The translations under genes were made by a program, and so were the position numbers. From Bacilli bacterium (lineage in GTDB: Bacteria; Bacillota_I; Bacilli_A; ML615J-28; CAG-698), in contig JBMNLX010000003.1 of the NCBI GenBank assembly GCA_050953085.1, forward strand, positions 57,757 to 121,756: a stretch of DNA of 64,000 nucleotides, given 5' to 3'. Positions 6,700 through 62,478 of this stretch are shown one piece after another. Below the pieces are notes generated by a model, which saw only the letters and a list, made by a program, of their open reading frames with translations, did no database searches and was not told where the DNA came from. Each line of letters begins with the position of its first letter. Position 1 is the stretch's first letter.

Positions 6700-6715
6700 G
6701 TCTCCTTAAGCAAAA

Positions 6716-9264: not shown

Positions 9265-9265
9265 C

Positions 9266-10459: not shown

Positions 10460-10461
10460 AT

Positions 10462-12321
10462 CTATTCCTTTCCCATCTTTTTAAGTACGATAAACGATAA
10501 TTTCCCAATGTTAATAACGAGCGACTCGGGATAGCCGTGGCTCGGAACCGCCTCGGTCGAAACCGTCCCGTTCGCCGTCCCCGCGCCGCCGTAAATCCGG
10601 CGGTCGCTCGAGAATACCTCGCGATAACGACCCGAAGGCGCCCCCAGTCGGTAACGCTCCCAGCCGATGCCCGCAAAATTTACGACGATCAAAAGCTCGC
10701 TCTTCCCGGCGATTCGGAGAAAACTGATTACGTTTCTTCCGGCGTCGTCGCTTTCGATCCACCGGAACCCCTCCCAGGAAAAGTCGTTCTTCCATAGACT
10801 CTCATTTTTTAGATAAAACCGGTTCAAGTCGCGGATATAGCGGCGCAGTTTCCGGTGCGCCGGATATTTAAGCAAGAGCCAGTCTAATTCGCGGCGGTAA
10901 TCCCACTCGATAAACTGCCCGAACTCATATCCCATGAAATTAAGTTTTTTCCCCGGATGGGTCATCATATAACCGTAGAATGCCCGGAAGTTGGCGAATT
11001 TTTCCCAGTAATCGCCCGGCATTTTGTCGAGGATCGATTTTTTCCCGTGAACGACCTCGTCATGGGAAATCGGCAGGATAAAGTTTTCGCTGAAGGCGTA
11101 ATAAAAGGAAAAAGTCAGCTGCCGATGATTATGGCTGCGAAAAACCGGGTCGGTGGAAATATAAGACAACGTGTCGTTCATCCACCCCATGTTCCATTTG
11201 AAGTTAAAACCGAGACCGTCGTAATGAACGGGTTTCGTGACGCGGGGAAACGCGGTCGACTCCTCGGCGATCATCATCGCCCCGGGGAAAAGCCCAAACA
11301 CCTCGGTGTTAAGTTGCTTGAGAAAATCGATCGCCTCGAGATTGTGGTTCCCGCCGTGAATGTTCGCTTCCCATTCCGTCCTGTCATAATCGAGATAGAG
11401 CATCGAGGCGACGGCGTCGACGCGCAAGCCGTCGATATGATATTTATCAAAATAAAAAACGGCGTTGGAAATCAGGAAAGATTTGACCTCGGGTTTGGCA
11501 TAATTAAAGGATCGCGTCCCCCAGCCCTTATGCTCCATGCGCAACGGGTGCGGGTCCTCGTAAACGTAGCCGCCGTCAAATTCGATTAGACCGAAATCGT
11601 CTTTCGGGAAATGCGCCGGAACCCAATCGAGAATGACGCCGATGCCGTTTTTGTGCGCCTCGTTTACCAAGTACATAAAATCGGCGGGGGTGCCGTAACG
11701 GGACGTGACGGCGTAATACCCGGTAACCTGGTAGCCCCACGAGCCCGAAAACGGGTGTTCCATTACCGGCATGATCTCGATATGGGTATATCCCATATCC
11801 TTTACGTACGGGATAAGCTCCTCCGCGATCTTCCGGTAATCGAACGGCTCGCCTCCGGGATAACGGCGCCAGGAACCGAGGTGAACCTCGTAAATATTGA
11901 CCGGTTTACTGTATACCGGTTCCCGGTCGCGTTTTTCCATCCACTCGTCGTCGGTGAACCGAAACCCCGAAAGATCGTACACTTTCGAGCAGGTATTGCC
12001 GTCGGTCTCGTTATGGTAGGAATAAGGGTCCTGCTTAAAAAAATCCCGGCCTTTATTCGTTATGTAGTATTTATAATTCGCGTAAACGGGCGCGTCTTCG
12101 ATAACCGCTTCCCAAATACCCTCGGCGGTTACTTTCGTCATCGGGTGGGAGGCGGTATTCCAATCATTGAAATCCCCGACTACCGATACAAACTCAGCAT
12201 GGGGAGCATAAACGCGAAAAGTCACGACCGGCCGGCCGTTCTTAATCGTATAATGGCTCCCCAAGTATCGATATGCCCGTGACGAAAAACGGTAATGAAA
12301 ATCGAGTCTGAATTTTTCCAT
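10462..12321 (-). CDS. glgB: 1,4-alpha-glucan branching enzyme
   Basis: 619 aa. GH13 branching-enzyme catalytic regions ([18 protein letters not shown]), an N-terminal CBM48-like domain, and first position in the operon. Confidence 0.9.
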
Positions 12322-12394
12322 AAAGTCTCCTAGCCAATAACATTATACAATAAATTGCCGTTTTAGGCAATAAATATAAAGGCAGGAGCGCTTC

Positions 12395-13861
12395 TTATCG
12401 CCGGTATAATTCGGTCAGGCCGCGAATTCGGGCGGCCAGTTTATCGCTCAAGGCTTTGGGCCGCAGGCGCCACACCCAGTTTCCTCCCAGAGTGGACGGG
12501 CAGTTAAAACGGGCGCGATCGTCCAAGAACAAATAATCCTGAATCGGGATAATCGCCAGACGGCAGATCGACCCCAGGCAGGCGGAGATCGCCCGGCGAA
12601 CCGCCCGCCGGCCGCGCCCCCTGACCTGCATATATTTACAAAAATACTTATAATCTTCTTTGCTTAGGGTTTTAAGCCACCCCCTCAAGGTGGAATTGTC
12701 ATGCGTGCCGGGGTAGACGACGGCGTTACGCGTGTAGTTATGCGGGGCGTATTCGCTGTCGGTTTTGTGATCAAAACCGAATTGCAGGATCTTCATGCCC
12801 GGAAAACCGCAAGCCTCGCGCAACTCATGCACCTCGGGCGTCATAAACCCCAAATCCTCGGCAATAATTTCGGCCTCGCCCAACTCTTCTTTAACCCGGG
12901 CGAACAATTTATAGCCCGGGCCCTTAAACCAGCGCCCTTCCCGGGCGTCGCGCGCGTCGGCGCGGACCGTGTAGAACGATTCAAACCCGCGGAAATGATC
13001 GATCCTGACGACGTCAAACATCTCGAGGGCGTTTTTTATTCTTCTTATCCACCAGGAAAAACCGTCGCTTTCCATCGCCTCGTAATCATAAATCGGGTTG
13101 CCCCATAATTGGCCGGTTTCCGAATAAAGATCGGGCGGAACCCCGGCCACGACCTCCGGGCAGCGGCGCTCGTCAAGCAGCCAGTATTCCGGCTGCGACC
13201 AAACATCGGCGGAATCATAAGAAACGTAAATCGGCATGTCGCCGATGATTTTTATGCCGCGTTCGTTGGCGTAAGCCTTAAGCCGGAACCATTGGCGGAA
13301 AAACATGTGCTGGACAAATTTCCAAAACTCGACCTCGTCTTCGCGTTCGTTCAAAAAATCCGCCAGCGCTTTTTTACTGCGAATTCTGTAAGGATAATCC
13401 CACTTCGACCAGTCGACTTCCGGTTTCAAAGATTTGATCGCCATGAACAAGGCATAGTCGTCAAGCCAATGACGATGTTTTTTCTTGAATTTCTCGAACC
13501 CGGCGTCGGCGGAAAACCGTTGAAAAGCTTTTTTTAATACCGGGACGCGATGACGGTACTGATGAGCGTAATCGACTTTATCTGCCGGCGCGGCCGCCAA
13601 CGGTTGGCAATCCCCGGGGGTAAGAAGCCCTTCTTCGATAAGCAAGTTTAGATCGATAAAATAGGGGTTACCGCCGAAAGCGGAAAAAGACTGATAAGGC
13701 GAGTCGCCGTAAGAGGTCGGCCCCAAGGGCAACACCTGCCAGTATTTCTGACCGGCTTTTTCTAAAAAATCGACGAACTTAAACGCTTCGGCGCCCAAAG
13801 AGCCGATGCCGTATTCTCCCGGCAACGAACTGATATGAAGTAAAATGCCGCCTGATCTCAT
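12395..13861 (-). CDS. malQ: 4-alpha-glucanotransferase (amylomaltase)
   Basis: 488 aa with the GH77 N-terminus MRSGGILLHISSLPGEYGIGSLG and YWQVLPLGPTSYGDSPYQ. A paralog lies at 59305..60765. Confidence 0.85.
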   Translation of the reverse strand: MRSGGILLHISSLPGEYGIGSLGAEAFKFVDFLEKAGQKYWQVLPLGPTSYGDSPYQSFSAFGGNPYFIDLNLLIEEGLLTPGDCQPLAAAPADKVDYAHQYRHRVPVLKKAFQRFSADAGFEKFKKKHRHWLDDYALFMAIKSLKPEVDWSKWDYPYRIRSKKALADFLNEREDEVEFWKFVQHMFFRQWFRLKAYANERGIKIIGDMPIYVSYDSADVWSQPEYWLLDERRCPEVVAGVPPDLYSETGQLWGNPIYDYEAMESDGFSWWIRRIKNALEMFDVVRIDHFRGFESFYTVRADARDAREGRWFKGPGYKLFARVKEELGEAEIIAEDLGFMTPEVHELREACGFPGMKILQFGFDHKTDSEYAPHNYTRNAVVYPGTHDNSTLRGWLKTLSKEDYKYFCKYMQVRGRGRRAVRRAISACLGSICRLAIIPIQDYLFLDDRARFNCPSTLGGNWVWRLRPKALSDKLAARIRGLTELYRR

Positions 13862-14040: not shown

Positions 14041-15000
14041 ATGGCTCTTAAGGATTATCCCGACTGGGTTCTAAAGCATAAAGGCAATGGTCGGGAGATT
14101 AGATGCATTCGCGGAAGGTATTATCTTTACCAAGTTCATTCGGAAAGGATGAACGGAAAGGTCAAGAAATTCACGGACAAATACTTGGGTCGGATTACCG
14201 AGGAAGGATTGATTCCTCCAAGGCCCAAGAAAGTCGAATATCACGCAAAGCGCTTTGGCCTTACCGCTTTTATCTTTTCCAGTTGCCGAAGGATTATCAA
14301 AGGATTGATCAAAAGATATCCTTCGAAACATAAGAAATTATTGTCGCTTGCGATCCTTAAATACTTCTTTGATAACGACTTAAGGGAATATGATAAGCAT
14401 TATATTTCCGTTCTTTTCCCGGAAGTGAAAATAAAGGAAGAGAAAATGTCGGTTCAGGACGAAATCGACCGGATTGTAGGCATGATGGATCATGCCGCGC
14501 GAAAAGAACTAAAAGGCATAGGCTTGGAAGAATTTAAGCAGTTAATATCGCCGCTTTACATCGTCGGGGTTAAAGGCGCGTGGACCGTGGCCCAATATAA
14601 TAAGGAGATTGAGGAACTAATAAAAAAACACAATATCGAAATGGAGATTGATTATGGCGAAAATCAATAAGTTTATCGTTAAATACGCGGAGATTTTTAA
14701 AGGCAACGCAATTGATTTTGATGCGGCCAAGCCGCACGACAGATTGGTTAAGCGTTTCGCGAAAATCATCCGGAAACGAGGTATTTTGGGACGACATTGA
14801 ATAATCTTCAAACCGCGGCAGAGGCGATTAAAGAGCGATGGGATGGCGAGAATCTCTTGCATCGGCGCTTGGATATGGAATTTGACGAAGATGCTAATAA
14901 AACGATGGATCCGATCGCATACAATAACTTAAGCATTATAAACAAGTTGTGTTTATCGATATTGAAGGTAGCGAAACCGATTTTTGAAAACCGAAGCTGA
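14041..15000 (+). pseudogene. Degraded IS transposase remnant (ISAs1/IS1634-like)
   Basis: Two same-frame ORFs (14041..14670 and 14797..15000) separated by in-frame stops. The second carries the transposase C-terminal motif ERWDGENLLHRRLDMEFDEDA, which resembles the ISAs1-type HWxIENxLHWxLDVxFxED motif. The first resembles a transposase N-terminus. No intact DDE core is present. Confidence 0.5.
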
Positions 15001-15282: not shown

Positions 15283-16272
15283 TTAACGCCCGTAAACTTC
15301 CGCGGCGCGGAAAAAGGCGTCAATATTTTTCCAAGGCGTTTCGGGCGGGAGCGCGCGACCCGAGGAAAGGATAAAATTATCATAGCCGACGCAACGCGAA
15401 AGCAAATCGCGGGTAGCGTGGATAATCGCGGTGGCGTCTTCTTTCGCGAACGCGTCTGGATCGACATTTCCCATGACGATCTTTCCCGGCGGCATCGCCT
15501 TTAACATTTCCCTGACGTCAACGCCGGGACCAAAATGATAGATATCGGCGCCGATTCCCGCTATGCTTTCCGCCGCGAGCAAAACGTTCCCGCAATTATG
15601 ATAGATGACTAAAAAACCGGGATCCATGCAGCCGGCGACCAATTCTCGCAGCGGCCGGGAAGAAAACCGCTCGCACAAGTCCGCGTCAACCTCGCCGGCG
15701 GCGGGTTCGTTGATAAAAATCCCATCCGCGCCGGATTCTTTTATCGCTCTCACGTACTCTTTCAGATAGAGCGTTATTTTCTCAATGAGTTTATCGAGAA
15801 CTTCCGGTCTTTCATGCCCCAAAATCGTTATTTCCGCTTCCCCCAAAAGTTCCCTCGCGACGGTGAGCGGCCCGCTCACCCCGGCGATAACGGCGCGCTC
15901 GTCGATTATCGCTTTCGCCTTGCCGGCGGCTTTAAGAATAATCTCCTCTCTCCCCGCGCCGAGAGCCCGCGCCCGCAACCCCTTGATTTCCTCCGGCCTT
16001 ACCCGACCGCTTACATACGGCAAGCGGTCCTCGAAAAAACTTACTTTTGCCCCGAAAGCCTCTGCTTCGATTGTCGCGTCGATAACGCCGATAACGGCGT
16101 TAAAGGAACATTTATCGGCGATCGTTTTCATCGCCAGCGCTTGGTTTAACGGGGAAGAAAGTAATTCCGAAAGCGTGATTTTAAGCAGGGAAATTCCCGG
16201 ATATATCAGCAACGGCCAAGGCCTTCTGTCGCCGAAAAGTTTATTGATTAACTCGTTTGTCATCTCATTCAC
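15283..16272 (-). CDS. Uroporphyrinogen decarboxylase (URO-D) family protein / MtaA-like methyltransferase
   Basis: 329 aa. A URO-D/CmuA-MtaA family fold is inferred from overall sequence character. No specific substrate is assignable. Confidence 0.6.
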   Translation of the reverse strand: MNEMTNELINKLFGDRRPWPLLIYPGISLLKITLSELLSSPLNQALAMKTIADKCSFNAVIGVIDATIEAEAFGAKVSFFEDRLPYVSGRVRPEEIKGLRARALGAGREEIILKAAGKAKAIIDERAVIAGVSGPLTVARELLGEAEITILGHERPEVLDKLIEKITLYLKEYVRAIKESGADGIFINEPAAGEVDADLCERFSSRPLRELVAGCMDPGFLVIYHNCGNVLLAAESIAGIGADIYHFGPGVDVREMLKAMPPGKIVMGNVDPDAFAKEDATAIIHATRDLLSRCVGYDNFILSSGRALPPETPWKNIDAFFRAAEVYGR

Positions 16273-38108: not shown

Positions 38109-40025
38109 ATGAGATTTTTGCTTCGTTCCATGAAATATCTTTTCATCATTACCGTGTTGGGGATGCTTTTAATCGTCGGCGTTTTTGTTTATTTCGCCCG
38201 AAAACTTGACTACATGATCCCGAAAACAGTCAATATCGAGGTCTACGACGCCGGCGGGACGCAATTTCTTTCCCTTTACGGCGATAAAAAAAGAAGTTAT
38301 ATCCCGCTTGCGGAAATTGACCGGCGGATAATCGACGCTTTTATCTCGATCGAGGATAAAAAATTCTACCAGCACCGGGGCGTCGACATTTTGCGCATCG
38401 GCGGGGCGTTGCTTTCTAATATCGAAGCGAACGAGATTCGCCAAGGGGCATCGACGATCACCCAACAATACGCCCGCAATCTTTATCTCGACTTTTCCAA
38501 GGATTACAAACGAAAAATTACCGAGGTCATGATTGCGATAAACCTGGAATCGAAATACTCGAAAGAAGAAATTCTCGAAGGCTATCTCAACTCCATCTAC
38601 TTCGATCACGGAATTTACGGCATTGAGGACGCCTGCCGCTTTTATTTCAATAAATCGGCTCGCTCCGTGAGTCTCGCGGAGGCGGCGGCGCTAGCCAGTA
38701 TTCCGAAGGGACCGGCTCATTTCTCGCCGTTAAAAAACCCCGATAACAACGCCGAGCGGCGGCGGCTCGTGCTTGCGGAAATGCGCGAGGACGGTAAAAT
38801 TACCGCCGAAGAGATGGAGCGGGCTTTGGAAGAAGAAATATCCGTTTACGGAAGTCTTGACCGATTAAACGACGAGTTCGCGCCGTATTATCAGGACACG
38901 ATTATTAAAGAGTTGCGGGAAAAAGGCTTCTTTGAAAAAAACAAAGATCTCAAAGTCTATACTTCCCTGAATCTTGAACTCAATAATATCATCCTCGAGG
39001 CCCGAGACAAATACCCGCCCCCTAAGTCCGAACTCGAGTACGCCATCTACGCCATCGACCCGGAGACGGGATATGTGCTCGCCAGCGTCGGCGGGCGCGA
39101 TTACCGGGAAAACGCGTTTAACCGCGCCACCGACGCCCTCCGGCAGCCCGGTTCCACGATCAAGCCTTTCTTATATTACGCCGCGCTTGGTTACGGCTTT
39201 ACCCCGGCGACAACTTTCACCAGCACGAAAACGACCTTTTACGTCAACGGCAAACCCTACGCGCCGACGAATTTTGCCGGGATATATCCCGACCGCGAGA
39301 TCAGCATGGCTTACGCCCTCGCGGTGTCGGACAATATTTACGCCGTGAAGACCCACTTGTTTCTCGGCACGGAAACGCTTGTCGATACGCTTAAACATTT
39401 CGGCATCACTACCCCCGTTCACGATACCGTTTCGCTCGCCCTGGGCACGAGCGAGGTCAAATTAAGCGAGCTTGTGGGCGCTTACGTAAAAATTGCGGCG
39501 CTGGGAAAAGACGTGGAACCGCAATATATTACCAAGATAACGGACGAGAAGGGAAAAGTATTATACAAAGCCAAGGACAACTTCAAGCAAAAATACAACC
39601 CTTCCAATTGTTATATCCTCTCGGAGACAATGACGAACGTCTTCGACAACCGCCTCTCGATCAACATCAGCACCACCGGGGCGGCGATCGCCCATAAGAT
39701 CACGAAAAAATACGCCGCGAAAAGCGGCACGACCGACTTCGACAGTTGGATCGTCGGGTATAATAAAAAAATCGTCCTTGGCATCTGGACGGGCTACGAC
39801 GATAACCGCCCGATCGATAACAGCGACGTGAAATATATCAAATATTTGTGGGCGGAGATTGTCGAGCGATACAACGCGAAAAACTCCGACACCTGGTATG
39901 AGTTGCCGAATGACGTCATCCCGGTCGTGCTTAACCCGGTCACGGGCTCGGTCGCCCATAAGAACGAATATAAAAAGGCCCTCTACTTTCGCGTCGACAA
40001 TCTCCCATGGTATATTTTTGAGTAA
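38109..40025 (+). CDS. Class A penicillin-binding protein (transglycosylase + transpeptidase)
   Basis: 638 aa. N-terminal TM anchor, GT51 motifs (EDKKFYQHRGVD, GASTITQQYARN) and transpeptidase STIKP and KSGT motifs. Confidence 0.85.
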   Translation: MRFLLRSMKYLFIITVLGMLLIVGVFVYFARKLDYMIPKTVNIEVYDAGGTQFLSLYGDKKRSYIPLAEIDRRIIDAFISIEDKKFYQHRGVDILRIGGALLSNIEANEIRQGASTITQQYARNLYLDFSKDYKRKITEVMIAINLESKYSKEEILEGYLNSIYFDHGIYGIEDACRFYFNKSARSVSLAEAAALASIPKGPAHFSPLKNPDNNAERRRLVLAEMREDGKITAEEMERALEEEISVYGSLDRLNDEFAPYYQDTIIKELREKGFFEKNKDLKVYTSLNLELNNIILEARDKYPPPKSELEYAIYAIDPETGYVLASVGGRDYRENAFNRATDALRQPGSTIKPFLYYAALGYGFTPATTFTSTKTTFYVNGKPYAPTNFAGIYPDREISMAYALAVSDNIYAVKTHLFLGTETLVDTLKHFGITTPVHDTVSLALGTSEVKLSELVGAYVKIAALGKDVEPQYITKITDEKGKVLYKAKDNFKQKYNPSNCYILSETMTNVFDNRLSINISTTGAAIAHKITKKYAAKSGTTDFDSWIVGYNKKIVLGIWTGYDDNRPIDNSDVKYIKYLWAEIVERYNAKNSDTWYELPNDVIPVVLNPVTGSVAHKNEYKKALYFRVDNLPWYIFE

Positions 40026-49092: not shown

Positions 49093-49250
49093 TATATTCT
49101 CCTTTCTAAAATTGCGCCACGCTTCCTGGCGTTTCAAACATTGATAAAATTTAGTTTTGGCAGCGCCAAAACCGTTTTAAAAATTAACCCGTAATATTAT
49201 ACGCTTATTTCGCTCAAATGTCAAGAATTTTTACTTATATTTTAGGGGAA

Positions 49251-50631
49251 TTGTGAATATATTATGATAATTTCATATAGAGTTATATAATGATAATTTC
49301 ACTAAATACAAAGGTTAATTGTATTAGCGTAGGCAACCCTTAATTTTGTAATTTAAGCCCTTCTTTGATATCATATGGATTAATATGGATATGTATCAAC
49401 GGAGGGAAGACACATGAGAAAGGTCGAACTAAGAATGAACGAGCAAATGAAGTATGAAATTATCAGAAGAGTAGCTTTTAAAGAAATCAGCGTCCACAGA
49501 GCAGCGGTCCAGCTTAACTGTACCGTAAGAACCGTCTATAACCTCGTCAAAAAGTATCGGGAACATGGTAAGGCCGGCTTTATCCACGGTAACAGGAACC
49601 GAAAACCGGCCGCTACCATGAGCCCAAAACTTGAACAAACCATTGTTTCGTTTTATATGCAAAAATGCGAAGGTGCCAATTTTCTACACTTCCAGGAGTT
49701 GCTGGAAGAGATAAAAGGCATTAAAGTCTCTTATTTCAAACTCTACGCGCTTCTGCGTAAGCATGGGATCATATCTCCCAAGTGTCATAGGATTACCCGT
49801 AAAAAACACACGCAAGAGACTTTAAAGGGTTATTACAACATATTTCACCAGGTATTGACCAAATACGGCATACCGGCGAAAATTTTGGCCGATAACAGGT
49901 CAATCTTCAATTACAAGCTTAAGAACAGCCATTCTAAAGAAAAAGACACGCATACGCAATTCGGATATGCCTGCCATCGGCTCGGGGTCGATCTTGACAC
50001 GACTTCCGTCGCCCAAGCAAAGGGCAGAATCGAAAGAATGTTCGGTACCCTCCAAAGCCGGTTGGTTACGGAACTTAAGATGGCAGGCATATTCGATATC
50101 GATGCGGCTAATGAGTTCTTGAAGGATTTTGTCCCAAAATTCAACGAGCGTTTCGCGCTCCCCATCGATTATCTCACATCGGTTTTTGACGAGAACATCG
50201 ATCAAGAAACCATCAATAACACATTAGCCGTCATCAGCGCAAGAAAAGTCGATAACGGTAATACGATTAAGTACAAAAATAAGTATTATCACCTGTATGA
50301 CTTTGATGGCAACATGATGCCATTCAAACCCAAAACGGTATGTATCGTTATGGAAACTTACGACGGATCTCTCATCGCCTCGGTTAACGATGATCTTTAC
50401 GGGTTGGTAGAGCTTGAGGTCCATCACGAATTTTCCAAGAACTTTGACACGAAAAAACCGGAAAAGAAACGCTATACCGGCCATAAGCCCAAGGATTGTC
50501 ATCCCTGGACCTATAAAAGCTATCTGGCCAGAAAAAGAAGGCGTTACAAGTCCAGGGCGGAAACCCTTGCTTAACAAGTACTGGACAAATAATCAGGTAT
50601 TTTTTGTGAAATTTTCATTATATATTGACAG
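49251..50631 (+). mobile_element. Intact ISNCY-like insertion sequence (about 1.38 kb) between rpsL and rpoBC
   Basis: Imperfect terminal inverted repeats: 21 of 25 positions match between TTGTGAATATATTATGATAATTTCA on the left and the reverse complement of the right end. A single transposase ORF. The first 180 bp are identical to a second partial copy at 61856..62035. Confidence 0.7.
49414..50574 (+). CDS. ISNCY-family DDE transposase (HTH + integrase-core)
   Basis: 386 aa. N-terminal MRKVELRMNEQMKYEIIRRV...FIHGNRNRKP pattern, typical of proteins annotated as ISNCY-family transposases. rve-like core. Confidence 0.7.
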   Translation: MRKVELRMNEQMKYEIIRRVAFKEISVHRAAVQLNCTVRTVYNLVKKYREHGKAGFIHGNRNRKPAATMSPKLEQTIVSFYMQKCEGANFLHFQELLEEIKGIKVSYFKLYALLRKHGIISPKCHRITRKKHTQETLKGYYNIFHQVLTKYGIPAKILADNRSIFNYKLKNSHSKEKDTHTQFGYACHRLGVDLDTTSVAQAKGRIERMFGTLQSRLVTELKMAGIFDIDAANEFLKDFVPKFNERFALPIDYLTSVFDENIDQETINNTLAVISARKVDNGNTIKYKNKYYHLYDFDGNMMPFKPKTVCIVMETYDGSLIASVNDDLYGLVELEVHHEFSKNFDTKKPEKKRYTGHKPKDCHPWTYKSYLARKRRRYKSRAETLA

Positions 50632-50656
50632 AATTTTTACTTATATTTTAGGGGAA
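50632..50656 (+). repeat. 25-bp perfect direct repeat flanking the IS (partner at 49226..49250)
   Basis: AATTTTTACTTATATTTTAGGGGAA is present immediately outside both IS ends. In addition, the left flank TGTCAAG resembles the IS right terminus TGACAG. Confidence 0.85.
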
Positions 50657-50678: not shown

Positions 50679-53600
50679 CTACTCTTCGTCTTCTTCAACA
50701 TTAATAACGTAATCGGCGTCGATAATTCCCGTTCCGGCAGGGATTAAGCCGCCGATAATAATATTTTCTTTAAGTCCTTCAAGATAGTCTTTCTTACCGC
50801 GGATGGCGGCTTCCGTAAGAACGCGCGTCGTTTCCTGGAAGCTTGCCGCGGAAAGGAAGGAGTCGGATTTCAACGAAGCGCGGGTAATGCCCAAGAGCAT
50901 GGATTTTACTATCGGCACCTCGATGTTGTTTTTCCGGCAGTCTTCGATAATATCGTAGAGCTCGTTTTTCGATATTTGCGTGCCCGGTAGAAGATTGGTC
51001 CCGCCTTCGTGCACGACGACCACTTTTTGAAGCATCTGTCGAATTATGATTTCAATATGCTTGTCGGCGATTTCAACGCCTTGGGAACGGTAAACTTTCT
51101 GCACCTCGCCGAGGATGTATTTGCCGACATCGTCGACGGTGCTGACTCTTAGAAGTTCCTTCGGGTGAATCATTCCCTCGGTCAAGGGCTGACCGGCTTT
51201 TACCCGGTCGCGCTCGTGCACGATCGGGACTTTCCCGAATTCGGTAAGATATGTTTTCTCTTCCAGGTTGTTTTTGATCTTGATCTCAAACCTGTTGTCT
51301 TTATCGTGACGGATGGAAGTAACGATGCCGTCGATTTCGGTAATCGTTGCCTTAAGTTTCGGTTGGCGCGCTTCGAAAAGTTCCTGAATCCGGGGCAAGC
51401 CCTGGGTAATGTCCTCGGCCGCGACGCCGCCGGAATGGAACGTACGCATCGTAAGCTGCGTGCCCGGCTCGCCGATCGATTGAGCGGCGATAATACCGAC
51501 GACCTCGCCGATCTCGACGATCTCGCTCGTCGAAAGGTCGCTGCCATAACAGTGGACGCAGACGCCGCTTTTCGCATCGCAAGTGATCAGCGTGCGAATC
51601 TCCACTTCCTTCACACCAGCCTTCACGATTCTCTCCGCCAAATCGTCGTCGATATATGTTTGCGCGGCGACCATGACTTCGCCCGTTTTCGGATTTATAA
51701 CCGGCTTGTTGGTGAAACGCCCGCGAATCCGGTCGTAAAGGGGGATGTTGCTTTCCTCAAGCGCGGTCACGATCATTCCCTTATCCGTGCCGCAATCCTC
51801 CTCGGTAACGGTGACGTCCTGGCTCACGTCAACGAGGCGGCGGGTAAGATAGCCCGACTCGGCCGTTTTCAAAGCCGTGTCGGTCGAGCCTTTCCGGGCG
51901 CCGTGCGTCGAGATAAAGAACTCGGACATCGTCAGTCCCTCGCGGAAGGAAGCCCTGATCGGGATATCCATGATCTCGCCGTTGGGCTTGGCCATTATGC
52001 CGCGCATCCCCGAAAGCTGAACGAAGTTGGAAATATTACCGCGGGCGCCGCTGTCGCTCATCATATACAAATGATTAGTCGCAAAATCCTTTTGAACCTC
52101 GGCGTGAATCGCGTTTTCAAGCTTCTCCTTCGCTTTTTGCCAGACCTCGATAACGCGCTGGCTGCGTTCTTTTTTCGTCATATAACCCTTGCGATAAAGG
52201 CTGTCGTATTTATCGACCTTCTCCTCGGCTTCCGCCAAGACTTCTTTCTTGACGTCAACGACCCTGATGTCCTCCGCGGCGATCGTGATGCCGGAAATCG
52301 TGGAGTACTTAAACCCAAGGTCTTTCATCCGGTCGAGAGTTTTCGACGTCTCCGCAAGTTTAAACTTCTTAAACACCTCGGCGATAATCTGGCTTAAAAA
52401 CTTCTTCCTGAAAGGGTGGGGCGACTCCATCCTGTTTAGGAGATTGCGGAAGGTTTCGCCCGGTTTTAAATCCCGGACGGAAACGAAATATTTATCCGGC
52501 GTTTTATCGGTGAGATTTTCCAAAGTCGCCTCGTTAATGTAAGGAACATAAGGCGGCTCCTGCGGAAAAATCGTATTAAAGATAATTTTGCCGTAAGTCG
52601 TGACCAAGTACTTTTTTTGTTGTTCCGGCGTGAAATGCGGGTTATTAAAAATCTTAGCCGGAATCAAGATTCGGGTATGGAAATTAATATCGCCGTTTTC
52701 GTAAGCAAGCTCGACCTCGCTCAGCGAGGAATAGACTTTTCCTTCGTTCTCTTCCCCGCGTTTTTCGATCGTCAGGTAATAGTTGCCCAAGACCATGTCC
52801 TGCGAGGGGGTAACGATCGGTTTTCCGTCCTTCGGCGCAAGGATGTTTTTCGAGGCCAGCATCAAAAGCCTCGCCTCGGCTTGCGCCTCTTCCGAAAGCG
52901 GGACGTGAACCGCCATCTGGTCGCCGTCGAAGTCGGCGTTAAACGCCGGCGTGACCAGGGGATGCAAGCGGATCGCTTTTCCCTCGACCAGTTTCGGCTC
53001 AAAAGCCTGGATTCCAAGCCGGTGCAGCGTCGGCGCGCGGTTTAAAAGCACCGGGTGCTCGACAACGATCTTTTCCAGCTCGGTCATGGCGATCGGGTCG
53101 CCCGTTTCGATCATTTCCTTCGCCCGTTTCAGGCTGATCCGGTTTCCGCCCTCGGGATTTTCTCTGTCGCGTTCAAGAATCGCGTTGATGATAAAGGGTT
53201 TAAACAAAATCAACGCCATTTCCCGCGGTATCCCGCACTGATACATCTTAAGGTCGGGACCGACGACGATAACGCTCCGGCCGGAGTAATCGACGCGCTT
53301 ACCGAGAAGGTTTTGCCGGAAGCGGCCCTGCTTTCCGCGCAAAAGGTCGGACAGGGACTTAAGCGGCCTGTTTCTCTCCACGACCACCTTCTTGTTTCGC
53401 TTGCTGTTGTCAATCAGGGCGTCGACCGCCTCCTGAAGCATCCGTTTCTCGTTTTTCGTAATCAAGCCCGGGGCGCGCTGCTCGTATTGTTTCTTCAAAC
53501 GGTTATTGCGGTTTAAGATCCGCCGGTATAGGTCGTTTAAGTCGGTCGTCGCGAAACGGCCGCCGTCAAGTTGGACCATCGGTCGAAGATCGGGAGGCAA

Positions 53601-56600
53601 GACAGGGATAACTTCCATGACCATCCATTCCGGTTTGTTTCCGGATTGTTGAATCGCCTCGATAACGTCAAGCCGCTTGATTAGTTTCTCGCGCTTTTGC
53701 TTGGTAGCTTTCTTTAACTCCTCGCGTAGCTGCTCGGCCGTTTCTTTTAAATCCAGGTCCTGCAATAGTTTTTTAATCGCTTCAGCGCCGGTAAGCGCCT
53801 TAAACTTCGAGGAACCGAATTCCCTCTGAAACTGGCTGTGTTCCTGCTCGGTGAGGATTTGCCCTTTATGCAGGATATCGACGGATCCCGGGTCAACGAC
53901 TATATAGGAGGCGAGATAAACGATTTCCTCGACTTCTTTCGTTTTCATGTCGAGCAACAACGCGATTTTCGAAGGGATGTTCTTCAAAAACCAAGAATGA
54001 ACGACGGGCGCGGCGAGTTCGATATGACCCATTCTTTCTCTTCTGACTTTGCTTTCGGTCAGCTCGACGCCGCACCGCTCGCATTTCGTCTCGCCTTTCG
54101 GCGTAATCGAACGCCGGGATTTCCCGCAGGCGCATTGATAGTCCTTCGTCGGCCCGAATATTACCTCGCAAAACAAGCCGTCGCGTTCCGGCTTTAGCGT
54201 GCGGTAATTTATCGTTTCGTGCTTTTTTACCTCGCCGTGGGACCAGCCGCGGATTTCCTCGGGGGAAGCGATGCCAATTTGAATGTATTTATATTTATTC
54301 TTGTTTTCTTGTTTCTTATCGCGCGGCGGCGCGCTTTCCACGAGACTTCTGTTGGCGACGTCTTCGCCTGTTTCAGCGTCAATAAGTTTCACGCTCAAGC
54401 CCAAGCCTTGCAATTCCTTAACCAAAACCCGGAAAGATTCTGGAATTCCGGGGTTGGGAATCGGGTCGCCGTCGACGATCGCCTTGTATACTTTATTCCG
54501 GCCGATAATATCGTCGGACTTGATCGTGAGCATTTCCCGAAGCGTATAGGCGGCGCCGTAAGCCTCCAAAGCCCACACTTCCATTTCCCCGAAACGCTGG
54601 CCGCCGTTTTGGGCTTTTCCGCTCATCGGCTGCTGCGTTACCAGGGCATAGGGACCCTCGCTGCGCGCATGAATCTTATCGTCAACCATGTGCGCGAGTT
54701 TGATCATATACATGATGCCGACGGCGATACGACTGTCAAACGGTTTGCCCGTCCGCCCGTCGTAGAGAACCATTTTGCCGTCGGGCTCCATTTTCGCTTC
54801 TTCCATGATCTCCCTTAAGTCCTCGTTCTCGACGCCGTCGAAAACGGGGGAAGCGATATAGCAGCCAAGCTTTTTCGCGGCCATCCCCAGATGGATCTCC
54901 AGAACTTGACCGATATTAAGCCGCGAGGGTATCCCCTGCGGGTTTAGCATGATGTCGATCGGCGTGCCGTCTTCCATATACGGCATATCCTCTTGGGGAA
55001 GAATCCGGGAAATAACGCCTTTGTTTCCATGGCGCCCGGCCATCTTGTCGCCCTCGCTTATCTTGCGTTTTTGCACGATATAAACGCGAACGACCTCGTT
55101 GACTCCCGGCGGTAATTCCGCGCCGTCTTTGCGACGAAAATGCTCGATACGGTGGACGATGCCGCCGCCGCCGTGCGGGACGCGCAGGGAGGTGTTGCGC
55201 ACGTCTTTGGAACTGTCGCTGAAGAGCGCTTGGGAAAGCCGTTCTTCCGGCGTCGGGTCGGTCTGTCCTTTCGGGGTCACTTTCCCGACAAGTATATCGC
55301 CTTCTTTTACCTCGGCGCCTAAGCGGACGATGCCGTATTCGTCGAGGTTGGCGATCGCTTCTTTGCGATCGTTTTCCAGGTCGCGGGTGATTTCTTCCTT
55401 GCCAAGTTTCGTGTCGCGAACCTCGACCTCGTATTTTTCGATATGAATTGATGTATAAACGTCATCCTGAACCAAACGCTCGCTTATGACGATCGCGTCC
55501 TCGTAGTTGTAACCGTCCCAGGTCATAAAAGCGACCGTGACGTTTTTCCCAAGCGCGAGCTCGCCGCCGTCCATCGCGGGACCGTCGGCGATGATGTCGC
55601 CGCGCTTGACGGACTCGCCCTTCCTGACAATCGGTTTTTGATTGAAGCAGGTGGAATGATTGGAGCGTTCGTATTTGACCAGGTTATATTCTTTCAGTTT
55701 ACCGCCGGCCTCGCGAAGGATTATCTTCCGGGAGTCGACGTATTCGACAACCCCGTCTCTCTCGCAAACGACGGCGGTGCCGGAGTCTTTCGCCGCTTTT
55801 TCCTCGATCCCGGTCCCGACATACGGGGCCTCCGTCTGTAGCAGCGGGATTGCCTGCCGTTGCATGTTGGCCCCCATCAGGGCGCGGTTTGCGTCGTCAT
55901 GCTCGAGGAAGGGGATGCAGGCGGTCGAAACGGAAACGATTTGCTTCGGCGAGACGTCGATCAAATCGACTGTTTCTTTCGGCACCTCAAAGGTATCGCC
56001 GCCGAAACGGGCGACGACGACATCGTCGATTATTTCGTTTTTCTCGTTCACCCGGATATTCGCCTGGGCGATATGATACTGTTCTTCCTTATCGGCGGTC
56101 AGATAAATTATTTCATCGGTTATCAACGGATTCTTTTTCGCTCTTTGCTTTACTTTAAGATAAGGCGTCTCGATAAAACCGTACTGGTCGACGCGGGCGT
56201 AAGTCGCAAGAGAGTTAATCAAGCCGATGTTCTGCCCTTCCGGCGTTTCGATCGGACAAATCCTCCCGTAGTGGGAAACGTGAACGTCGCGAACCTCGAA
56301 AGTCGCCCTTTCCCGGTTTAAGCCGCCGACGCCTAAGGCGCTGATGCGCCGTTTATGCGTGAGTTCCGACAGGGGATTGATTTGATCCATGAACTGCGAC
56401 AGCTGGCTGCTGCCGAAAAACTCGCGGATTGACGAAGTCAACGTCCGGATGTTGATCAAGTTTTGCGGAATGATGCTGCGCGGGTCGGACGATGTCGACA
56501 TCCGATCGCGAACGTTCTTCTCCATTTTCGCAAGCCCAATCCGGAATTGGTTTTGGAGAAGCTCGCCGATAAGCCGCAGGCGACGGTTGCCCAAATGGTC

Positions 56601-57806
56601 GATATCGTCAATTTTGCCGATATCGTCGTGCAGGTTGATATAATAACCGACCGCCGCGAAAATATCGGACAAAGTTATATGATTGGCGGTTTCGCTCTGA
56701 TCGTTGCCGATGAGCCGGAAAGTTTCCTTTAAACCGTGATGTTTTTCATACTCGATGTCGAGGATTTCCAAAACGACGGAATTCCCGACGAGCATTTGCT
56801 CGTATTCCTTCCGGACGCGGATCAGGCGACGGTTTTTAGCCAAAAATTCGCACGCCTGGGCGCTGATTTTTTCCCCGGTCGAAAATACCACCTCGCCGGT
56901 CTTGGAATCAACGATATCGGAAGCGAAAGCGCATTTATCATAGCCGATATCCTTAACGCGAGCAAGAACGTCGAGTTTTTTATTCACCTTGTACCGCCCG
57001 ACGTTCGCAAGGTCATATCGGCGAGTGTCGAACAAACGGTTGCACAGGTAATTTCTCGCGCCTTCCGGCGTCGCTTTCTCGCCGGGACGCATTCTTTCGT
57101 AAAGCTGCTCCAAGGCGTCGTCGGAACCGAAAGATTCGTCTTTATCGAAAGTGTTCCGGATATACTCGCTGTCGCCGTAAAGCTCGATAATCTCGCGGTT
57201 GGAATTAAGGCCCAAAGCGCGCAAAAACGTCGTCAAAGGTATTTTCTTTGACCGGTCTAGTTTCGCATACCAGATATCCTTCGAGCCCATCTCGAGTTCG
57301 ATCCAGGCTCCGCGGGTCGGGATGATCTGCCCGTAATACTGGATTTGGCCTTGTTTTAGCAGGGTAGCGTAAAAAACCCCGGCTGAACGGATGATTTGCG
57401 AGACAATGACGCGTTCCGCGCCATTTATAATAAAAGTACCCGAGGGGGTCATAATCGGAAAATCGCCGAGGAAAATCTTTTGTTCCTTGATTTCCTTGGT
57501 CTCTTTATTCACAAGCCGGACGTCGACCTTCAAGGCCGATGCGAAACTAACGTCGTTCTTTTTGCTCTCCATCGGACTGTATTTCGGCGGCTCGAATTCA
57601 AAATCACCGAAATAAAGCTCCAATTTTTCCCCGTGATCGCGAATCGGGGAAATCTCCGCAAACAGTTCTTTAAGTCCGGTGGTCATAAACCATTCGAACG
57701 ATTTTAATTGTACTTCGATTAAATTGGGGAGCTCGACGTTAGTCCTGACGCGCGAATAATTCCGGCGAACCCGATTTTTCCCATAGGTAACGTTTTTCCA
57801 AATCAA
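50679..57806 (-). CDS. rpoBC: DNA-directed RNA polymerase beta-beta' fusion (rpoB-rpoC in one reading frame)
   Basis: A single 2375-aa ORF. The N-terminal roughly 1170-aa part is rpoB, judged from rpoC typically being about 1200 aa. It ends ...[20 protein letters not shown] short linker, [24 protein letters not shown], joins it in-frame to the rpoC N-terminus [39 protein letters not shown]. Direct translation around 54300 to 54350 confirms there is no stop, no RBS and no ATG at the junction. Confidence 0.85.
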
Positions 57807-59304: not shown

Positions 59305-60765
59305 CTATCTCCTGTATAATTTGGTCCAAGCGGAAATTTTCGCCGCTAATTCGGCGTTCGTTTGACCCTTTTTCAAGCGCCATCGCCAGTTACCGCCCAA
59401 AGTCGCCGGCGTGTTCAAGCGCGCCTCGGCCCCCAGTTCGAGATAATCCTGCATCGGAATAATGGCGATATCGCACGCGGAAGCAAGCGCCGCTTTAATA
59501 AATCTCTCGACCGCTTCGCCAGGCTCGCGAATCCCCAAATATTCATAAACGAACGCCAGATCGGGAGGCGAAAGCGACGCGAACCAAGCTTTTGTCGGGG
59601 GATTATCATGCGTTCCCGGATAGCATACAGCGTTTTTCACATGATTATGCGGAAGATATATGCTATCGTCCCGATGATCGAAAGCAAACTGCAAAATCTT
59701 CATTCCCATAAAACCGGCCTCGTCGCGCAGTTTATACACGTCTTCCGTAAGATAACCCAAGTCCTCGGCAATAATAGGTAGCTCGCCGAGTTTTTCCGCT
59801 ATTTTTCGGAATAAACCGCTGCCCGGCCCCTTTATCCACGCCCCATGGCGCGCGGTGTCGGCCTGGCGGGGAATCGCGTAATAGGCCTCGAACCCGCGGA
59901 AATGATCAATTCGCAAACAATCATACAGGGACAAGGCGTGTCTAAAACGTTCGACCCACCAGGAATAATCCTCCTCAGCCATTTTTGCGTAATTATATAA
60001 CGGGTTTCCCCAAAGTTGTCCTTCGGGTGAAAAGGCGTCGGGAGGGCAACCGGCGACCGAAAGCGGCGCGAGGTTGCTGTCGAGCTGCCAATTAAGGGGG
60101 GCGGCCCATACGTCGCTTGAATCATACGCCACATAATAGGGCAGGTCGCCGATAATCTTTATCCCCGCGCGGTTTGCGTAGGCTTTTAACCGGCGCCATT
60201 GTTTGTGAAAGAAAAACTGGAGAAACTTCCAAAAACCAATCTCTTCCCGTTTGGCGGCGATAAAGTCATGAAAGGCCGCGCCTTTACGGAATTTAAGGGG
60301 CTCATCCCACCGGTCCCAAGCCCCCTCCGGCGTTTCGTTTTTAATCGCCATAAATACGGCGTAATCTTTTAACCAGCTTTCGTTTTCGACATCAAATTCC
60401 CGATAAGCCTTGTCGTGACGGAACCGTCCGTATGCTTTCCTTAACACTTTATAGCGATTTCGGTATTGATAGAAATAATCGATATCCCCTTCGTCCGTCT
60501 TCATCAAATTATAATCCTCGGGCGCGAGTAGCCCGTCCTCGCGCAAGAAGTCAAAATCGATATAATAGGGATTTCCGGCAAACGCGGAAAAAGTCTGGTA
60601 GGGGGAGTCGCCGTATGTCGTCGGACCCAAGGGCAACACCTGCCAATACTTCTGCCCGGCGGCCGCCAGGAAATCGATGAATTCATAGGCTTCTTTCCCC
60701 AAAGTCCCGATCCCATATGGATTGTTTAACGAACTTACCGGCAATAATATCCCACTTCCGCGCAT
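59305..60765 (-). CDS. malQ: 4-alpha-glucanotransferase (amylomaltase), second paralog
   Basis: 486 aa, beginning MRGSGILLPVSSLNNPYGIGTLG. Clearly homologous to the protein at 12395..13861; the identity level was not computed. Confidence 0.85.
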   Translation of the reverse strand: MRGSGILLPVSSLNNPYGIGTLGKEAYEFIDFLAAAGQKYWQVLPLGPTTYGDSPYQTFSAFAGNPYYIDFDFLREDGLLAPEDYNLMKTDEGDIDYFYQYRNRYKVLRKAYGRFRHDKAYREFDVENESWLKDYAVFMAIKNETPEGAWDRWDEPLKFRKGAAFHDFIAAKREEIGFWKFLQFFFHKQWRRLKAYANRAGIKIIGDLPYYVAYDSSDVWAAPLNWQLDSNLAPLSVAGCPPDAFSPEGQLWGNPLYNYAKMAEEDYSWWVERFRHALSLYDCLRIDHFRGFEAYYAIPRQADTARHGAWIKGPGSGLFRKIAEKLGELPIIAEDLGYLTEDVYKLRDEAGFMGMKILQFAFDHRDDSIYLPHNHVKNAVCYPGTHDNPPTKAWFASLSPPDLAFVYEYLGIREPGEAVERFIKAALASACDIAIIPMQDYLELGAEARLNTPATLGGNWRWRLKKGQTNAELAAKISAWTKLYRR

Positions 60766-60854
60766 TTTTCCTCCGAAATAAGACTAACTATAGTATATAC
60801 GATAATTGGAAAAATAAACCTAAAAAGTCTAGTTGCTAGCAACTAGACTTTTGG

Positions 60855-61541
60855 TCACCAATTAATAAGCGAAAATTTTATTTCGTCTTTATCTTTCAGA
60901 GGAATATCGGAAATACCTACCAACGAAGAGAGACCGTTGACATTGATTTGCCAGAAGGTCTCGGGATAATCCTCGGCGTTGATATCGCAAATCGTTGTGA
61001 TATAAAAACCGTAGGATTCTTCTCTTCCGCCCATTTGGATTTCCTCGTGTTCCTGCAACAGACCCAAAAGCGTGTCGCCCTCGCGAAAACTTATTTCGCC
61101 GTTAAACACCTCTTCTTTTTCATAATTCACGACGATGACCGTAATCGTCCCTTTCGCGTCGTTTTCCTTAATAAGCGAAAATTTTATTTCGTCTTTATCT
61201 TTCAGAGGAATATCGGAAATACCTACCAACGAAGAGAGACCGTTGACATTGATTTGCCAGAAGGTCTCGGGATAATCCTCGGCGTTGATATCGCAAATCG
61301 TTGTGATATAAAAACCGTAGGATTCTTCTCTTCCGCCCATTTGGATTTCCTCGTGTTCCTGCAACAGACCCAAAAGCGTGTCGCCCTCGCGAAAACTTAT
61401 TTCGCCGTTAAACACCTCTTCTTTTTCATAATTCACGACGATGACCGTAATCGTCCCTTTCGCGTCGTTTTCCGGATTGTCACACCCGGCAAGGGCGAAA
61501 AACGCCAAAAACAATAAGAAAACCAAAAAAATCTTTTTCAT
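60855..61541 (-). CDS. Lipoprotein with two tandem DUF4430-like (transcobalamin-like) domains; putative cobalamin-binding surface protein
   Basis: 228 aa. Lipobox LAGC. Two identical 102-aa repeats ending FWQINVNGLSSLVGISDIPLKDKDEIKFSL, matching the DUF4430 C-terminal pattern (W.y.vNG...vGa..y.lkdgD.I.f). Preceded by a cobalamin riboswitch. Confidence 0.6.
   Translation of the reverse strand: MKKIFLVFLLFLAFFALAGCDNPENDAKGTITVIVVNYEKEEVFNGEISFREGDTLLGLLQEHEEIQMGGREESYGFYITTICDINAEDYPETFWQINVNGLSSLVGISDIPLKDKDEIKFSLIKENDAKGTITVIVVNYEKEEVFNGEISFREGDTLLGLLQEHEEIQMGGREESYGFYITTICDINAEDYPETFWQINVNGLSSLVGISDIPLKDKDEIKFSLINW
60862..61473. repeat. Perfect 2 x 306-bp tandem duplication inside the lipoprotein gene
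   Basis: 60862..61167 and 61168..61473 appear identical at every position checked. The duplication is in-frame (102 codons). Confidence 0.9.
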
Positions 61542-61544
61542 TTT

Positions 61545-61790
61545 TACATTCCTTTCACGATAATGTAATATGAAAATAGGAAATATAAAAATGAAATATA
61601 TTTGCCTATTCTCATACCCAGGAGAAACGCATTCAGTACTTGGTAAGTCTTCCGGCTCAGCTTCGCTTTACTCTCAGCCCTTCCCGCCCGCGGGCAGTGG
61701 AATTCTGATTTCATCCGCTTTACGGCTGCTGGGACAGCTTAGGCTTTTCACCTAATTCCTTGTTATGCTTGCGCACCAAATACCGGCGAT
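61545..61790 (-). ncRNA. Cobalamin (B12) riboswitch
   Basis: The minus-strand 5' UTR of the lipoprotein gene contains GGTGCGCAAGC...GGAATTAGGTGAAAAGCC...CCACTGCCCGCGGGCGGGAAGG...GCCGGAAGACTTACC. The last element matches the B12 box (compare E. coli btuB GCCCGAAGACCTGCC). The CCACTG...GGGAAG core is also present. An expression-platform hairpin lies just 5' of the RBS. Confidence 0.7.
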
Positions 61791-61855
61791 TTCATTGATT
61801 ATTATAATAAAAGCAAAGCGAAAAGTCAATAACACAAATACCGCAAAGTGAAATT

Positions 61856-62035
61856 ATTGTGAATATATTATGATAATTTCATATAGAGTTATATAATGAT
61901 AATTTCACTAAATACAAAGGTTAATTGTATTAGCGTAGGCAACCCTTAATTTTGTAATTTAAGCCCTTCTTTGATATCATATGGATTAATATGGATATGT
62001 ATCAACGGAGGGAAGACACATGAGAAAGGTCGAAC
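61856..62035 (+). mobile_element. Solo 5'-end fragment (180 bp) of the ISNCY-like IS
   Basis: 100% identical to 49250..49429: left IR, leader, RBS and the first 5 transposase codons. After that the sequence diverges, and no transposase follows. Confidence 0.8.
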
Positions 62036-62478
62036 GAAGCCACAGAATCGATAACGAACGGTTCTACAAGGATAATCTCAAAATTGCTTTAGGTAAAAAA
62101 ATCCAGGAATTATTGATGAATATTTGGAAAAGTTTAAATTATCACGCTTTCACAATATTTCTATTAATATCACACCATATATTCCCATTTATTGCAAGGG
62201 GAAATAAAAAAAGCCTGCAGATGCAGACTTTGTCAACAGGCTGTAGTGTAGAAACACTATAAACTGTTCAGCCCTCAATATTCACAATACCTGCTAAACC
62301 GATGTTTTTACCAGGTTATTGAATGTTATTACTTCATCATCCGTTTTAAATAAAACTTCCAAATTAATGGCAATTGAATCTGATTTGTAATATAATAGGC
62401 TTGCGCTAATATATTAGTCATTACGTAAAGCCGCCCCCGGGTAATATTTATATACAAACATAAGGCTGAATGTATATA

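Follow-up and report, generated by a model that had tools for sequence, protein, structure and literature searches.

A young, segregating tandem duplication of a transcobalamin beta-like domain in a lipoprotein gene of an uncultured Bacilli species

The gene studied here encodes a lipoprotein with two identical domains in direct succession, and it raises the question of whether both copies are truly present in the genome, how recently the second one arose, and whether the number of copies varies among strains so as to tune the function of the protein. We analyzed this gene in its genomic context, a 64-kb stretch of DNA (hereafter, the window), and compared it with alleles from the same near-clonal, uncultured Bacilli species and with relatives from other lineages. 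The reading that we favor, and consider quite likely, is that the array is a young in-frame duplication with a single origin by illegitimate joining, that it segregates in the species, that it affects a corrinoid-capture lipoprotein, and that it constitutes the first stage of a recurrent path.

The duplicated unit and its transcription unit

The gene and its repeat comprise the following features.

60855..61541, minus strand, stop codon included: lipoprotein gene, encoding 228 aa with two DUF4430 (transcobalamin beta-like, SLBB) domains
61482..61541, minus strand: signal peptide that includes the lipobox L-A-G-C, with lipidation predicted at Cys20; read from the translation
61168..61473, minus strand: promoter-proximal copy of the repeat unit, with domain 1 (residues 24-124) and the junction residue Lys125
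60862..61167, minus strand: promoter-distal copy of the repeat unit, with domain 2 (residues 126-226); the native C-terminal Asn-Trp comes next
Boundary of copy 1 and copy 2: junction 31-mer GCGTCGTTTTCCTTAATAAGCGAAAATTTTA

Tandem Repeats Finder reported a single array at 60862-61473, with a period of 306, 2.0 copies, 100% matches, 0 indels and a score of 1224, and direct string comparison of the two units revealed 0 mismatches in 306 positions. Identity extends for 0 bases past the array on either side, so that the repeat is exactly 2 x 306 bp, a perfect match that cannot have arisen by chance. The duplication preserves the reading frame, as 306 equals 3 x 102, and the Lys125 codon at the junction, AAG, combines parts of an Asn codon (AA-) and a Pro codon (-G). 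String comparison also determined that microhomology is absent at the junction (61167|61168). These results confirm the coordinates and unit length given in the earlier, sequence-only reading of this DNA, as well as its description of two identical 102-aa domains within one lipoprotein. The in-frame array lies inside the 228-aa ORF.

The encoded protein consists of a signal peptide and lipobox (ending in FFALAGC), Asn-Pro, a stretch of 101 aa, a Lys, an identical stretch of 101 aa and Asn-Trp. It matches the Pfam family PF14478 (DUF4430) with 90.9 bits, against a gathering score of 23.8, over two stretches, while a search of NCBIfam returned nothing above cut-off. As judged by inspection of the translation, the N-terminus, MKKIFLVFLLFLAFFA-LAGC, fits the lipobox [LVI][ASTVI][GAS]C; C20 is almost invariant across the family alignment, and lgt sits two genes downstream of the lipoprotein gene.

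Four further elements, all on the strand of the gene, surround the coding sequence.

61801..61829, minus strand: sigma-70-type promoter-like site TTGACT-17-TATAAT, with 11/12 matches to the consensus in a consensus scan
61625..61795, minus strand: cobalamin riboswitch aptamer, a full-length match to RF00174 (88.6 bits against a gathering score of 31.5, E 1.6e-20)
61542..61624, minus strand: putative expression platform, a long AU-rich hairpin (MFE -25.1 kcal/mol, z -2.88 against shuffles)
60823..60852, minus strand: intrinsic-terminator-like hairpin, a 13-bp stem followed by a T-rich tail, located 3 nt past the stop codon

The promoter-like site lies 6 nt upstream of the aptamer, whose 3' end is located 84 nt before the ATG. 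In the predicted fold of the expression platform, a UUUCU tract from the aptamer's 3' end pairs with the Shine-Dalgarno sequence GAAAGGAA, and such sequestration would be compatible with an OFF switch. The succession of promoter-like site, riboswitch, gene and terminator-like hairpin indicates that the unit is monocistronic. It is flanked by rplL/rplJ (with an L10 leader) on one side and by malQ, lgt, a methyltransferase gene and rpoBC on the other.

Copy number in the species and across the family

A protein identical to the 228-aa product is recorded (P0019, NCBI MGI6676332.1, 'MAG: Bacilli bacterium') at locus L003, on the 1,555,702-bp contig Ga0534105_00025 (JGI 3300053716), and a second 228-aa allele (P0025) occurs in two other JGI samples (L001, 3300064082, and L002, 3300061563). 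The DNA of all three loci has the same junction as the window, with both units identical, and L001 and L002 differ from the window gene by one SNP outside the repeat (G19T, Val7Phe). Two of these three JGI samples have adjacent accession numbers and are perhaps not independent. Over 9146 aligned bases, 2 differences separate the window from L003, so that the window possibly derives from a separate assembly. The exact 36-nt junction had 0 matches in each of two large contig collections, a result that is uninformative because these collections, which returned only relatives at <=80% identity, appear to lack the relevant samples and the species' own locus. Likewise, a profile search with a 6-sequence alignment returned only three species-representative genomes, none of them from the species of the window.

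The sequence-only reading had left open that zero divergence reflects an assembly artefact, in which an assembler expanded the single unit of a metagenome-assembled genome and for which the missing junction 36-mer might also be cited, but this is very unlikely, because the identical junction recurs in three other assemblies from three samples (one contig being 1.56 Mb long) and on two haplotypes, because junction k-mers need reads that contain the junction, because assemblers usually collapse perfect tandem repeats instead of expanding them, and because the scanned collections evidently lack these samples. We hence regard the duplication as genuine.

Within the species, the one-domain form predominates. 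The exact collapsed protein (P0018, 126 aa) is present in 33 contigs and other one-domain alleles of the same 90% cluster in ~170 more, giving ~205 one-domain contigs against three two-domain contigs in addition to the window. The flanks of the 22 fetched loci long enough to align (L002 was too short and was left out) all lie within 0.34% of the window over 5971 aligned bases, and two one-domain loci, L005 and L007, differ from it at a single one of these 5971 sites. The proposal that copy number varies among strains thus holds for one and two copies, with the 126-aa allele in 33 contigs and a single copy in a strain only one SNP away over 6 kb. Only these two states are on record: hypothetical exact three- and four-copy proteins, on both signal-peptide backgrounds, were absent from a collection of 15 billion proteins. 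Since perfect 306-bp repeats are broken or collapsed by de Bruijn and short-read assemblers, the two-copy allele is probably more frequent than these counts suggest, and they should be read as a lower bound. Many short-read contigs of the species end ~346 bp upstream, within a 184-nt IS remnant. Short-read assemblies will therefore mis-size this gene, which is a warning for annotation and pangenome work. Being rare, the two-copy allele may be neutral, or mildly deleterious and transient, rather than useful.

The two-domain allele resides on two haplotypes that are three SNPs apart, a distribution that calls for recombination, for recurrent mutation at nt 19 or for reversions. The table of variable sites is mosaic, indicating recombination within the species. 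The same microhomology-free junction is found everywhere, so the most parsimonious history has one origin, with later recombination or mutation and perhaps some reversions. On this basis, we propose that a 306-bp tandem duplication would have arisen once, by homology-independent joining, in a one-domain lipoprotein gene of this near-clonal species, and that the resulting allele would now segregate beside its one-domain ancestor. The two-copy state is probably reversible, since perfect 306-bp repeats should undergo homologous unequal recombination.

Comparison with other species places this event late. The nearest species carry one domain (P0003, at 80% identity, P0004, P0005, P0007, P0008 and others), several of them with the gene at the syntenic position (rplL - riboswitch - gene - lgt), and one domain is consequently taken as the ancestral state. 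Since both the closest alleles and the sister species have one domain, the duplication is recent, as had been supposed, and the alternative considered in the sequence-only reading, an ancient duplication shared by uniformly two-domain orthologs, does not apply to this locus.

Doubling has nonetheless occurred elsewhere. The 224-aa, two-domain protein P0002 occupies the syntenic position in a related genome (L027), and on the domain tree its two domains are sisters within the clade of the one-domain P0008. Synonymous divergence between the two P0002 domains (dS 0.22) is below that of either to P0008 (0.47-0.67) and that of lgt in the same two genomes (0.60), which indicates that this duplication post-dates the split of the lineages. 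The P0002 copies present a dN/dS of 0.77, over only 97 codons, against 0.26-0.33 in comparisons with P0008 and 0.05 between the window gene and a P0003-type ortholog, and this small set of codons suggests that the copies may have been under relaxed or positive selection after duplication.

The lipoprotein gene was also considered as a strong local divergence hotspot, given an rplL dS of 0.038, but this was rejected once a sliding identity profile and the dS of lgt (0.60) had been used for calibration; the rate of evolution of the gene somewhat exceeds that of its flanks, chiefly at non-synonymous sites. Between loci L027 and L030, dS is 0.04 (0.038) for rplL, 0.14 for rplA and 0.16 for rplJ, against 0.60 for lgt and 0.47-0.67 for the lipoprotein domain, and either constraint on codon usage or a recent recombination event in the ribosomal cluster could account for the low values in the ribosomal genes.

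When 1.84 billion representatives were searched exhaustively with a profile, 2802 family members were identified at E<=1e-3. Among the 150 family proteins examined, nearly all of them drawn from this search, 42 (28%) are multi-domain, with 2 to 10 domains, and four (P0037, P0057, P0108 and P0114) have internal copies that are 100% identical. In the four-domain relative P0036 (422 aa), domain number is stable across 18 cluster members. Divergence between copies forms a series, from 0% at the window locus, where the duplication is polymorphic, through ~28% at the protein level in P0002, to ~60% or more in P0006 and P0036. Tandem amplification, both recent and ancient, is thus a recurring habit of the family, and older independent doublings are fixed, with diverged copies, in sister lineages. 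The family offers a natural time series of domain duplication, in which the window locus is the youngest point.

Identical in-frame repeats that each form one structural unit, in a copy number that differs between near-identical strains, are what characterizes size-variable tandem-repeat surface proteins. In the alpha C/Rib proteins of group B Streptococcus and the Vlp/Vsa lipoproteins of Mycoplasma, identical in-frame tandem repeats vary in number between strains. The window locus resembles these systems in that perfect DNA repeats correspond to whole structural units and in that copy number differs among close strains. It differs from them in having one or two copies only, in that its unit is a predicted ligand-binding domain, and in that signs of high-frequency variation and of immune or phage evasion are absent at this locus.

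The sequence-only reading had gone further and raised a contingency-like mechanism, whereby repeat number (one, two, three or more) would switch often under selection to tune B12-binding valency. Perfect 306-bp direct repeats are prone to recombination, and the polymorphism between near-identical strains, the occurrence of the two-copy allele on two haplotypes and the arrays of identical domains in other family members are all consistent with such a locus. It is nevertheless unlikely, and valency tuning is not supported, as only two states were found, in a record that short-read assembly biases against repeats, with three- and four-copy proteins absent from the protein collection, the junction is identical everywhere, which points to one origin rather than repeated de novo gains, and the one-domain allele predominates. 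No evidence was found for a dedicated high-frequency switch. Since doublings in sister lineages are independent, fixed and diverged, the single, young duplication that we favor appears as the first stage of a recurrent path and not as a dedicated switching device. It is a real, segregating domain duplication, the product of ordinary repeat evolution in a family that often undergoes it.

Fold, ligand and effect of the second domain

In the AlphaFold2 model (pLDDT 89.6), domain cores exceed a pLDDT of 95. A Foldseek search against the PDB returned 19 matches at E<=1e-3, all of them to 3u7z, a Ruminococcus gnavus DUF4430 domain, or to beta-domains of transcobalamin (TC), haptocorrin (HC) or intrinsic factor (IF), with TM values of 0.78-0.85 normalized to isolated domains, an rmsd of 2.2 A and E about 1e-6; the next matches were generic ubiquitin-like beta-grasp proteins at E>0.03. 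The beta-grasp fold superposes on the TC/IF/HC beta-domain, the beta-hairpin insert being judged from the whole-model match and not per residue. In the phmmer alignment, S74-Y75-G76-F77-Y78 correspond to L358-S359-G360-P361-Y362 of TC, F94-W95-Q96 to F376-W377-Q378, which we take to be ligand contacts, and the C-terminal L-I-N-W to L-V-S-W409 (the L-x-L-x-x-W stretch).

PF14478 falls in the transcobalamin-like clade of the SLBB beta-grasp superfamily. The window protein shares with the TC/IF/HC beta-domain this Pfam family, the fold and the aligned G-x-Y, F-W-Q and L-x-L-x-x-W stretches. It differs from these proteins in that neither the protein nor its transcription unit includes an alpha (alpha6/alpha6 barrel) domain, and in being bacterial, predicted to be lipid-anchored and riboswitch-controlled, and composed of two identical copies. 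In structural work on TC (PMC5599065), the L358 backbone contacts the ligand phosphate, and the isolated human TC beta-domain alone binds cyanocobalamin and cobinamide. In TC the ligand lies sandwiched between two domains; bound to the beta-domain by itself, it adopts a tilted and less complete pose.

The two-domain protein places two identical, separately folding modules on a single lipid anchor, joined by a linker of ~7 residues formed by ENDAKG, a segment that also connects the lipidated Cys with domain 1. Doubling would increase the binding sites per molecule from one domain's worth to two and would lengthen the reach from the membrane. Domain 1 lacks the conserved C-terminal aromatic residue of the family, with Asn-Trp replaced by Lys-Glu, and domain 1 of P0002 shows a similar loss; owing to this loss, the two sites may not be equivalent. 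Because nothing else differs between them, the natural one- and two-domain alleles are ideal matched constructs for the effect of a second domain on stoichiometry and affinity.

A different consequence would follow if the two beta-domains enclosed one corrinoid between them, the second replacing the missing TC alpha-domain, so that affinity rather than valency increased under positive selection. The sandwiched ligand of TC and the tilted, less complete pose in its lone beta-domain (PMC5599065) agree with such an arrangement, as do the recurrent doublings fixed in several lineages and the dN/dS of 0.77 between the P0002 copies, compared with 0.05-0.33 among orthologs. We consider it improbable, given that the pTM of 0.52 for the two-domain model means that no confident inter-domain packing is predicted, that the linker is merely ~7 residues long, that the two-domain allele is rare in the species and that the dN/dS value comes from 97 codons. 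An extended form, according to which doublings and 3- to 10-fold arrays would be selected for affinity or corrinoid range, with the polymorphism representing a sweep or a balance with habitat B12, has a similarly low probability. Under the reading that we favor, the domains would serve as two identical binding modules.

The regulatory context bears on the ligand. RF00174 lies directly upstream of the gene in 10/10 related loci with enough upstream sequence (L001, L004, L024-L027, L029, L030, L036 and L037), which include one-, two- and four-domain forms as well as proteins of as little as ~40% identity. This linkage places the gene in the cobalamin-riboswitch regulon, is the strongest evidence for a B12 role and bears out the B12 link that had been supposed for the window protein. 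The match of its fold to a B12-binding beta-domain and the riboswitch in 10/10 loci together make a corrinoid-scavenging role well supported but unproven. From fold and regulation, the product is most likely a membrane-anchored corrinoid-capture protein expressed at low B12. It would be made when B12 is scarce, capture corrinoids at the membrane and hand them to a transporter encoded elsewhere; no B12 transporter, alpha-domain partner or clear B12-dependent enzyme was found within the 64-kb window. If this functional assignment holds, riboswitch and one small lipoprotein would form a compact, self-contained Gram-positive B12-capture module, built from the domain that animals use in transcobalamin. 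The presence of a class A PBP gene at 38109-40025 indicates that the organism is walled.

The ligand might instead be another tetrapyrrole or soluble ligand, such as haem or a corrinoid precursor, with the riboswitch reflecting a general cofactor economy. SLBB domains take diverse ligands, and haem binding has been argued, in silico only, for the beta-like and alpha-like proteins of Lactobacillus (L. sakei) (preprint 10.1101/864751). This possibility is quite unlikely in view of the cobalamin riboswitch directly upstream in 10/10 loci, the closest solved folds, all of which are B12 carriers, and the S-x-G-x-Y and F-W-Q stretches, whose counterparts in the TC alignment are the segments around L358 and 376-378. 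Corrinoid capture is also in keeping with the prediction that extracellular bacterial TC-like SLBB proteins are B12 scavengers (Burroughs et al. 2007, PMC1796856). No experimental characterization of a bacterial member of this protein class, B12 binding included, was found in the literature.

With these bacterial TC-like SLBB proteins (PMC1796856) and Lsa1839 of L. sakei (10.1101/864751), the window protein shares a surface or secreted DUF4430 domain, a Gram-positive host and predicted corrinoid scavenging, but the operons of those proteins typically also include CbiO/CbiQ-type ECF components, alpha-toroid partners or a second SLBB paralog. The window gene, in contrast, forms a monocistronic riboswitch unit between rplL and malQ/lgt in a transporter-free neighborhood. 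Homology of the window lipoprotein to the Bacteroides proteins BtuG, a beta-propeller, BtuH, a DUF4465-type binder, and BtuJ was not detected in this analysis. The resemblance to these proteins (PMC6143338, PMC8941943, bioRxiv 10.1101/2025.07.01.662609) is one of concept, in that a surface lipoprotein, encoded in their case in a B12-transport locus, captures corrinoids. They act in Gram-negatives as outer-membrane partners of BtuB, and their folds appear unrelated. BtuH was rejected as a relative, since it belongs, as an abstract suggests, to a different domain family, DUF4465.

Genomic neighborhood

Upstream of the unit, a truncated IS remnant at 61856-62039 adjoins the riboswitch promoter and comprises the first 184 nt of the element, including its first 7 codons, at 99% identity; an 80-aa ORF that follows it has no family match. 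The IS element, with a 386-aa transposase, is located at window positions 49250-50650, between rpsL and rpoBC. The 184-nt repeat was considered as a driver of the duplication and rejected, as it is a truncated IS end that does not overlap the duplicated segment.

Directly downstream of the lipoprotein gene, a second 4-alpha-glucanotransferase paralog is encoded at 59305-60765 (minus strand). The first belongs to a glycogen metabolism cluster at 2384-13861 (minus strand) with amylase-like, glycogen phosphorylase, glgA, glgD/glgC, glgB and malQ genes, and over a 206-nt stretch the two malQ copies are 74% identical (13609-13814 and 60513-60718). A lone ORF of the URO-D family (PF01208, 145 bits) at 15283-16272 (minus strand) might encode a corrinoid-dependent enzyme; among the members of this family in anaerobes that do not make haem are the MtaA-type methylcobamide methyltransferases. 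The 209-aa ORF beside it (14041-14670) has no Pfam match.

In two lineages with multi-domain proteins, represented by L029 (60-854; the two-domain P0006) and L036 (984-1880; the four-domain P0036), genes for a Fer4_16 protein and a SpoU methylase precede the riboswitch-lipoprotein unit. The L029 Fer4_16 protein has a sub-threshold match to QueG_DUF1730; epoxyqueuosine reductase is a B12-dependent enzyme, and if the protein were one, it would constitute a further link to B12.

Two tandem genes for 467-aa transposase-like proteins with an HTH domain stand in place of rplK-rplA-rplJ-rplL in L015/L032 (ENA ERZ2647986, a 195-kb contig; ~6470-9520 of L032), between nusG and the lipoprotein gene. Either the locus has truly been rearranged or the assembly was joined through IS copies; L003 has a single copy of the same gene after nusG.

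Finally, the window (50679-57806, minus strand) and L031, L035, L001 and L003 carry a fusion of rpoB with rpoC, a single ORF of 2375 aa. Two other loci of the same near-clonal species, L032 (16900-16960) and L034 (13790-13845), have a separate rpoB (1171 aa, ending in KKQRGLQE and a stop) and an rpoC with a TTG start. A 35-nt segment containing the stop codon, the spacer and ribosome-binding site, and the start codon is missing from the fused form, its absence bringing the two genes into frame, and the fused and split forms constitute a segregating polymorphism of the RNA polymerase core genes.
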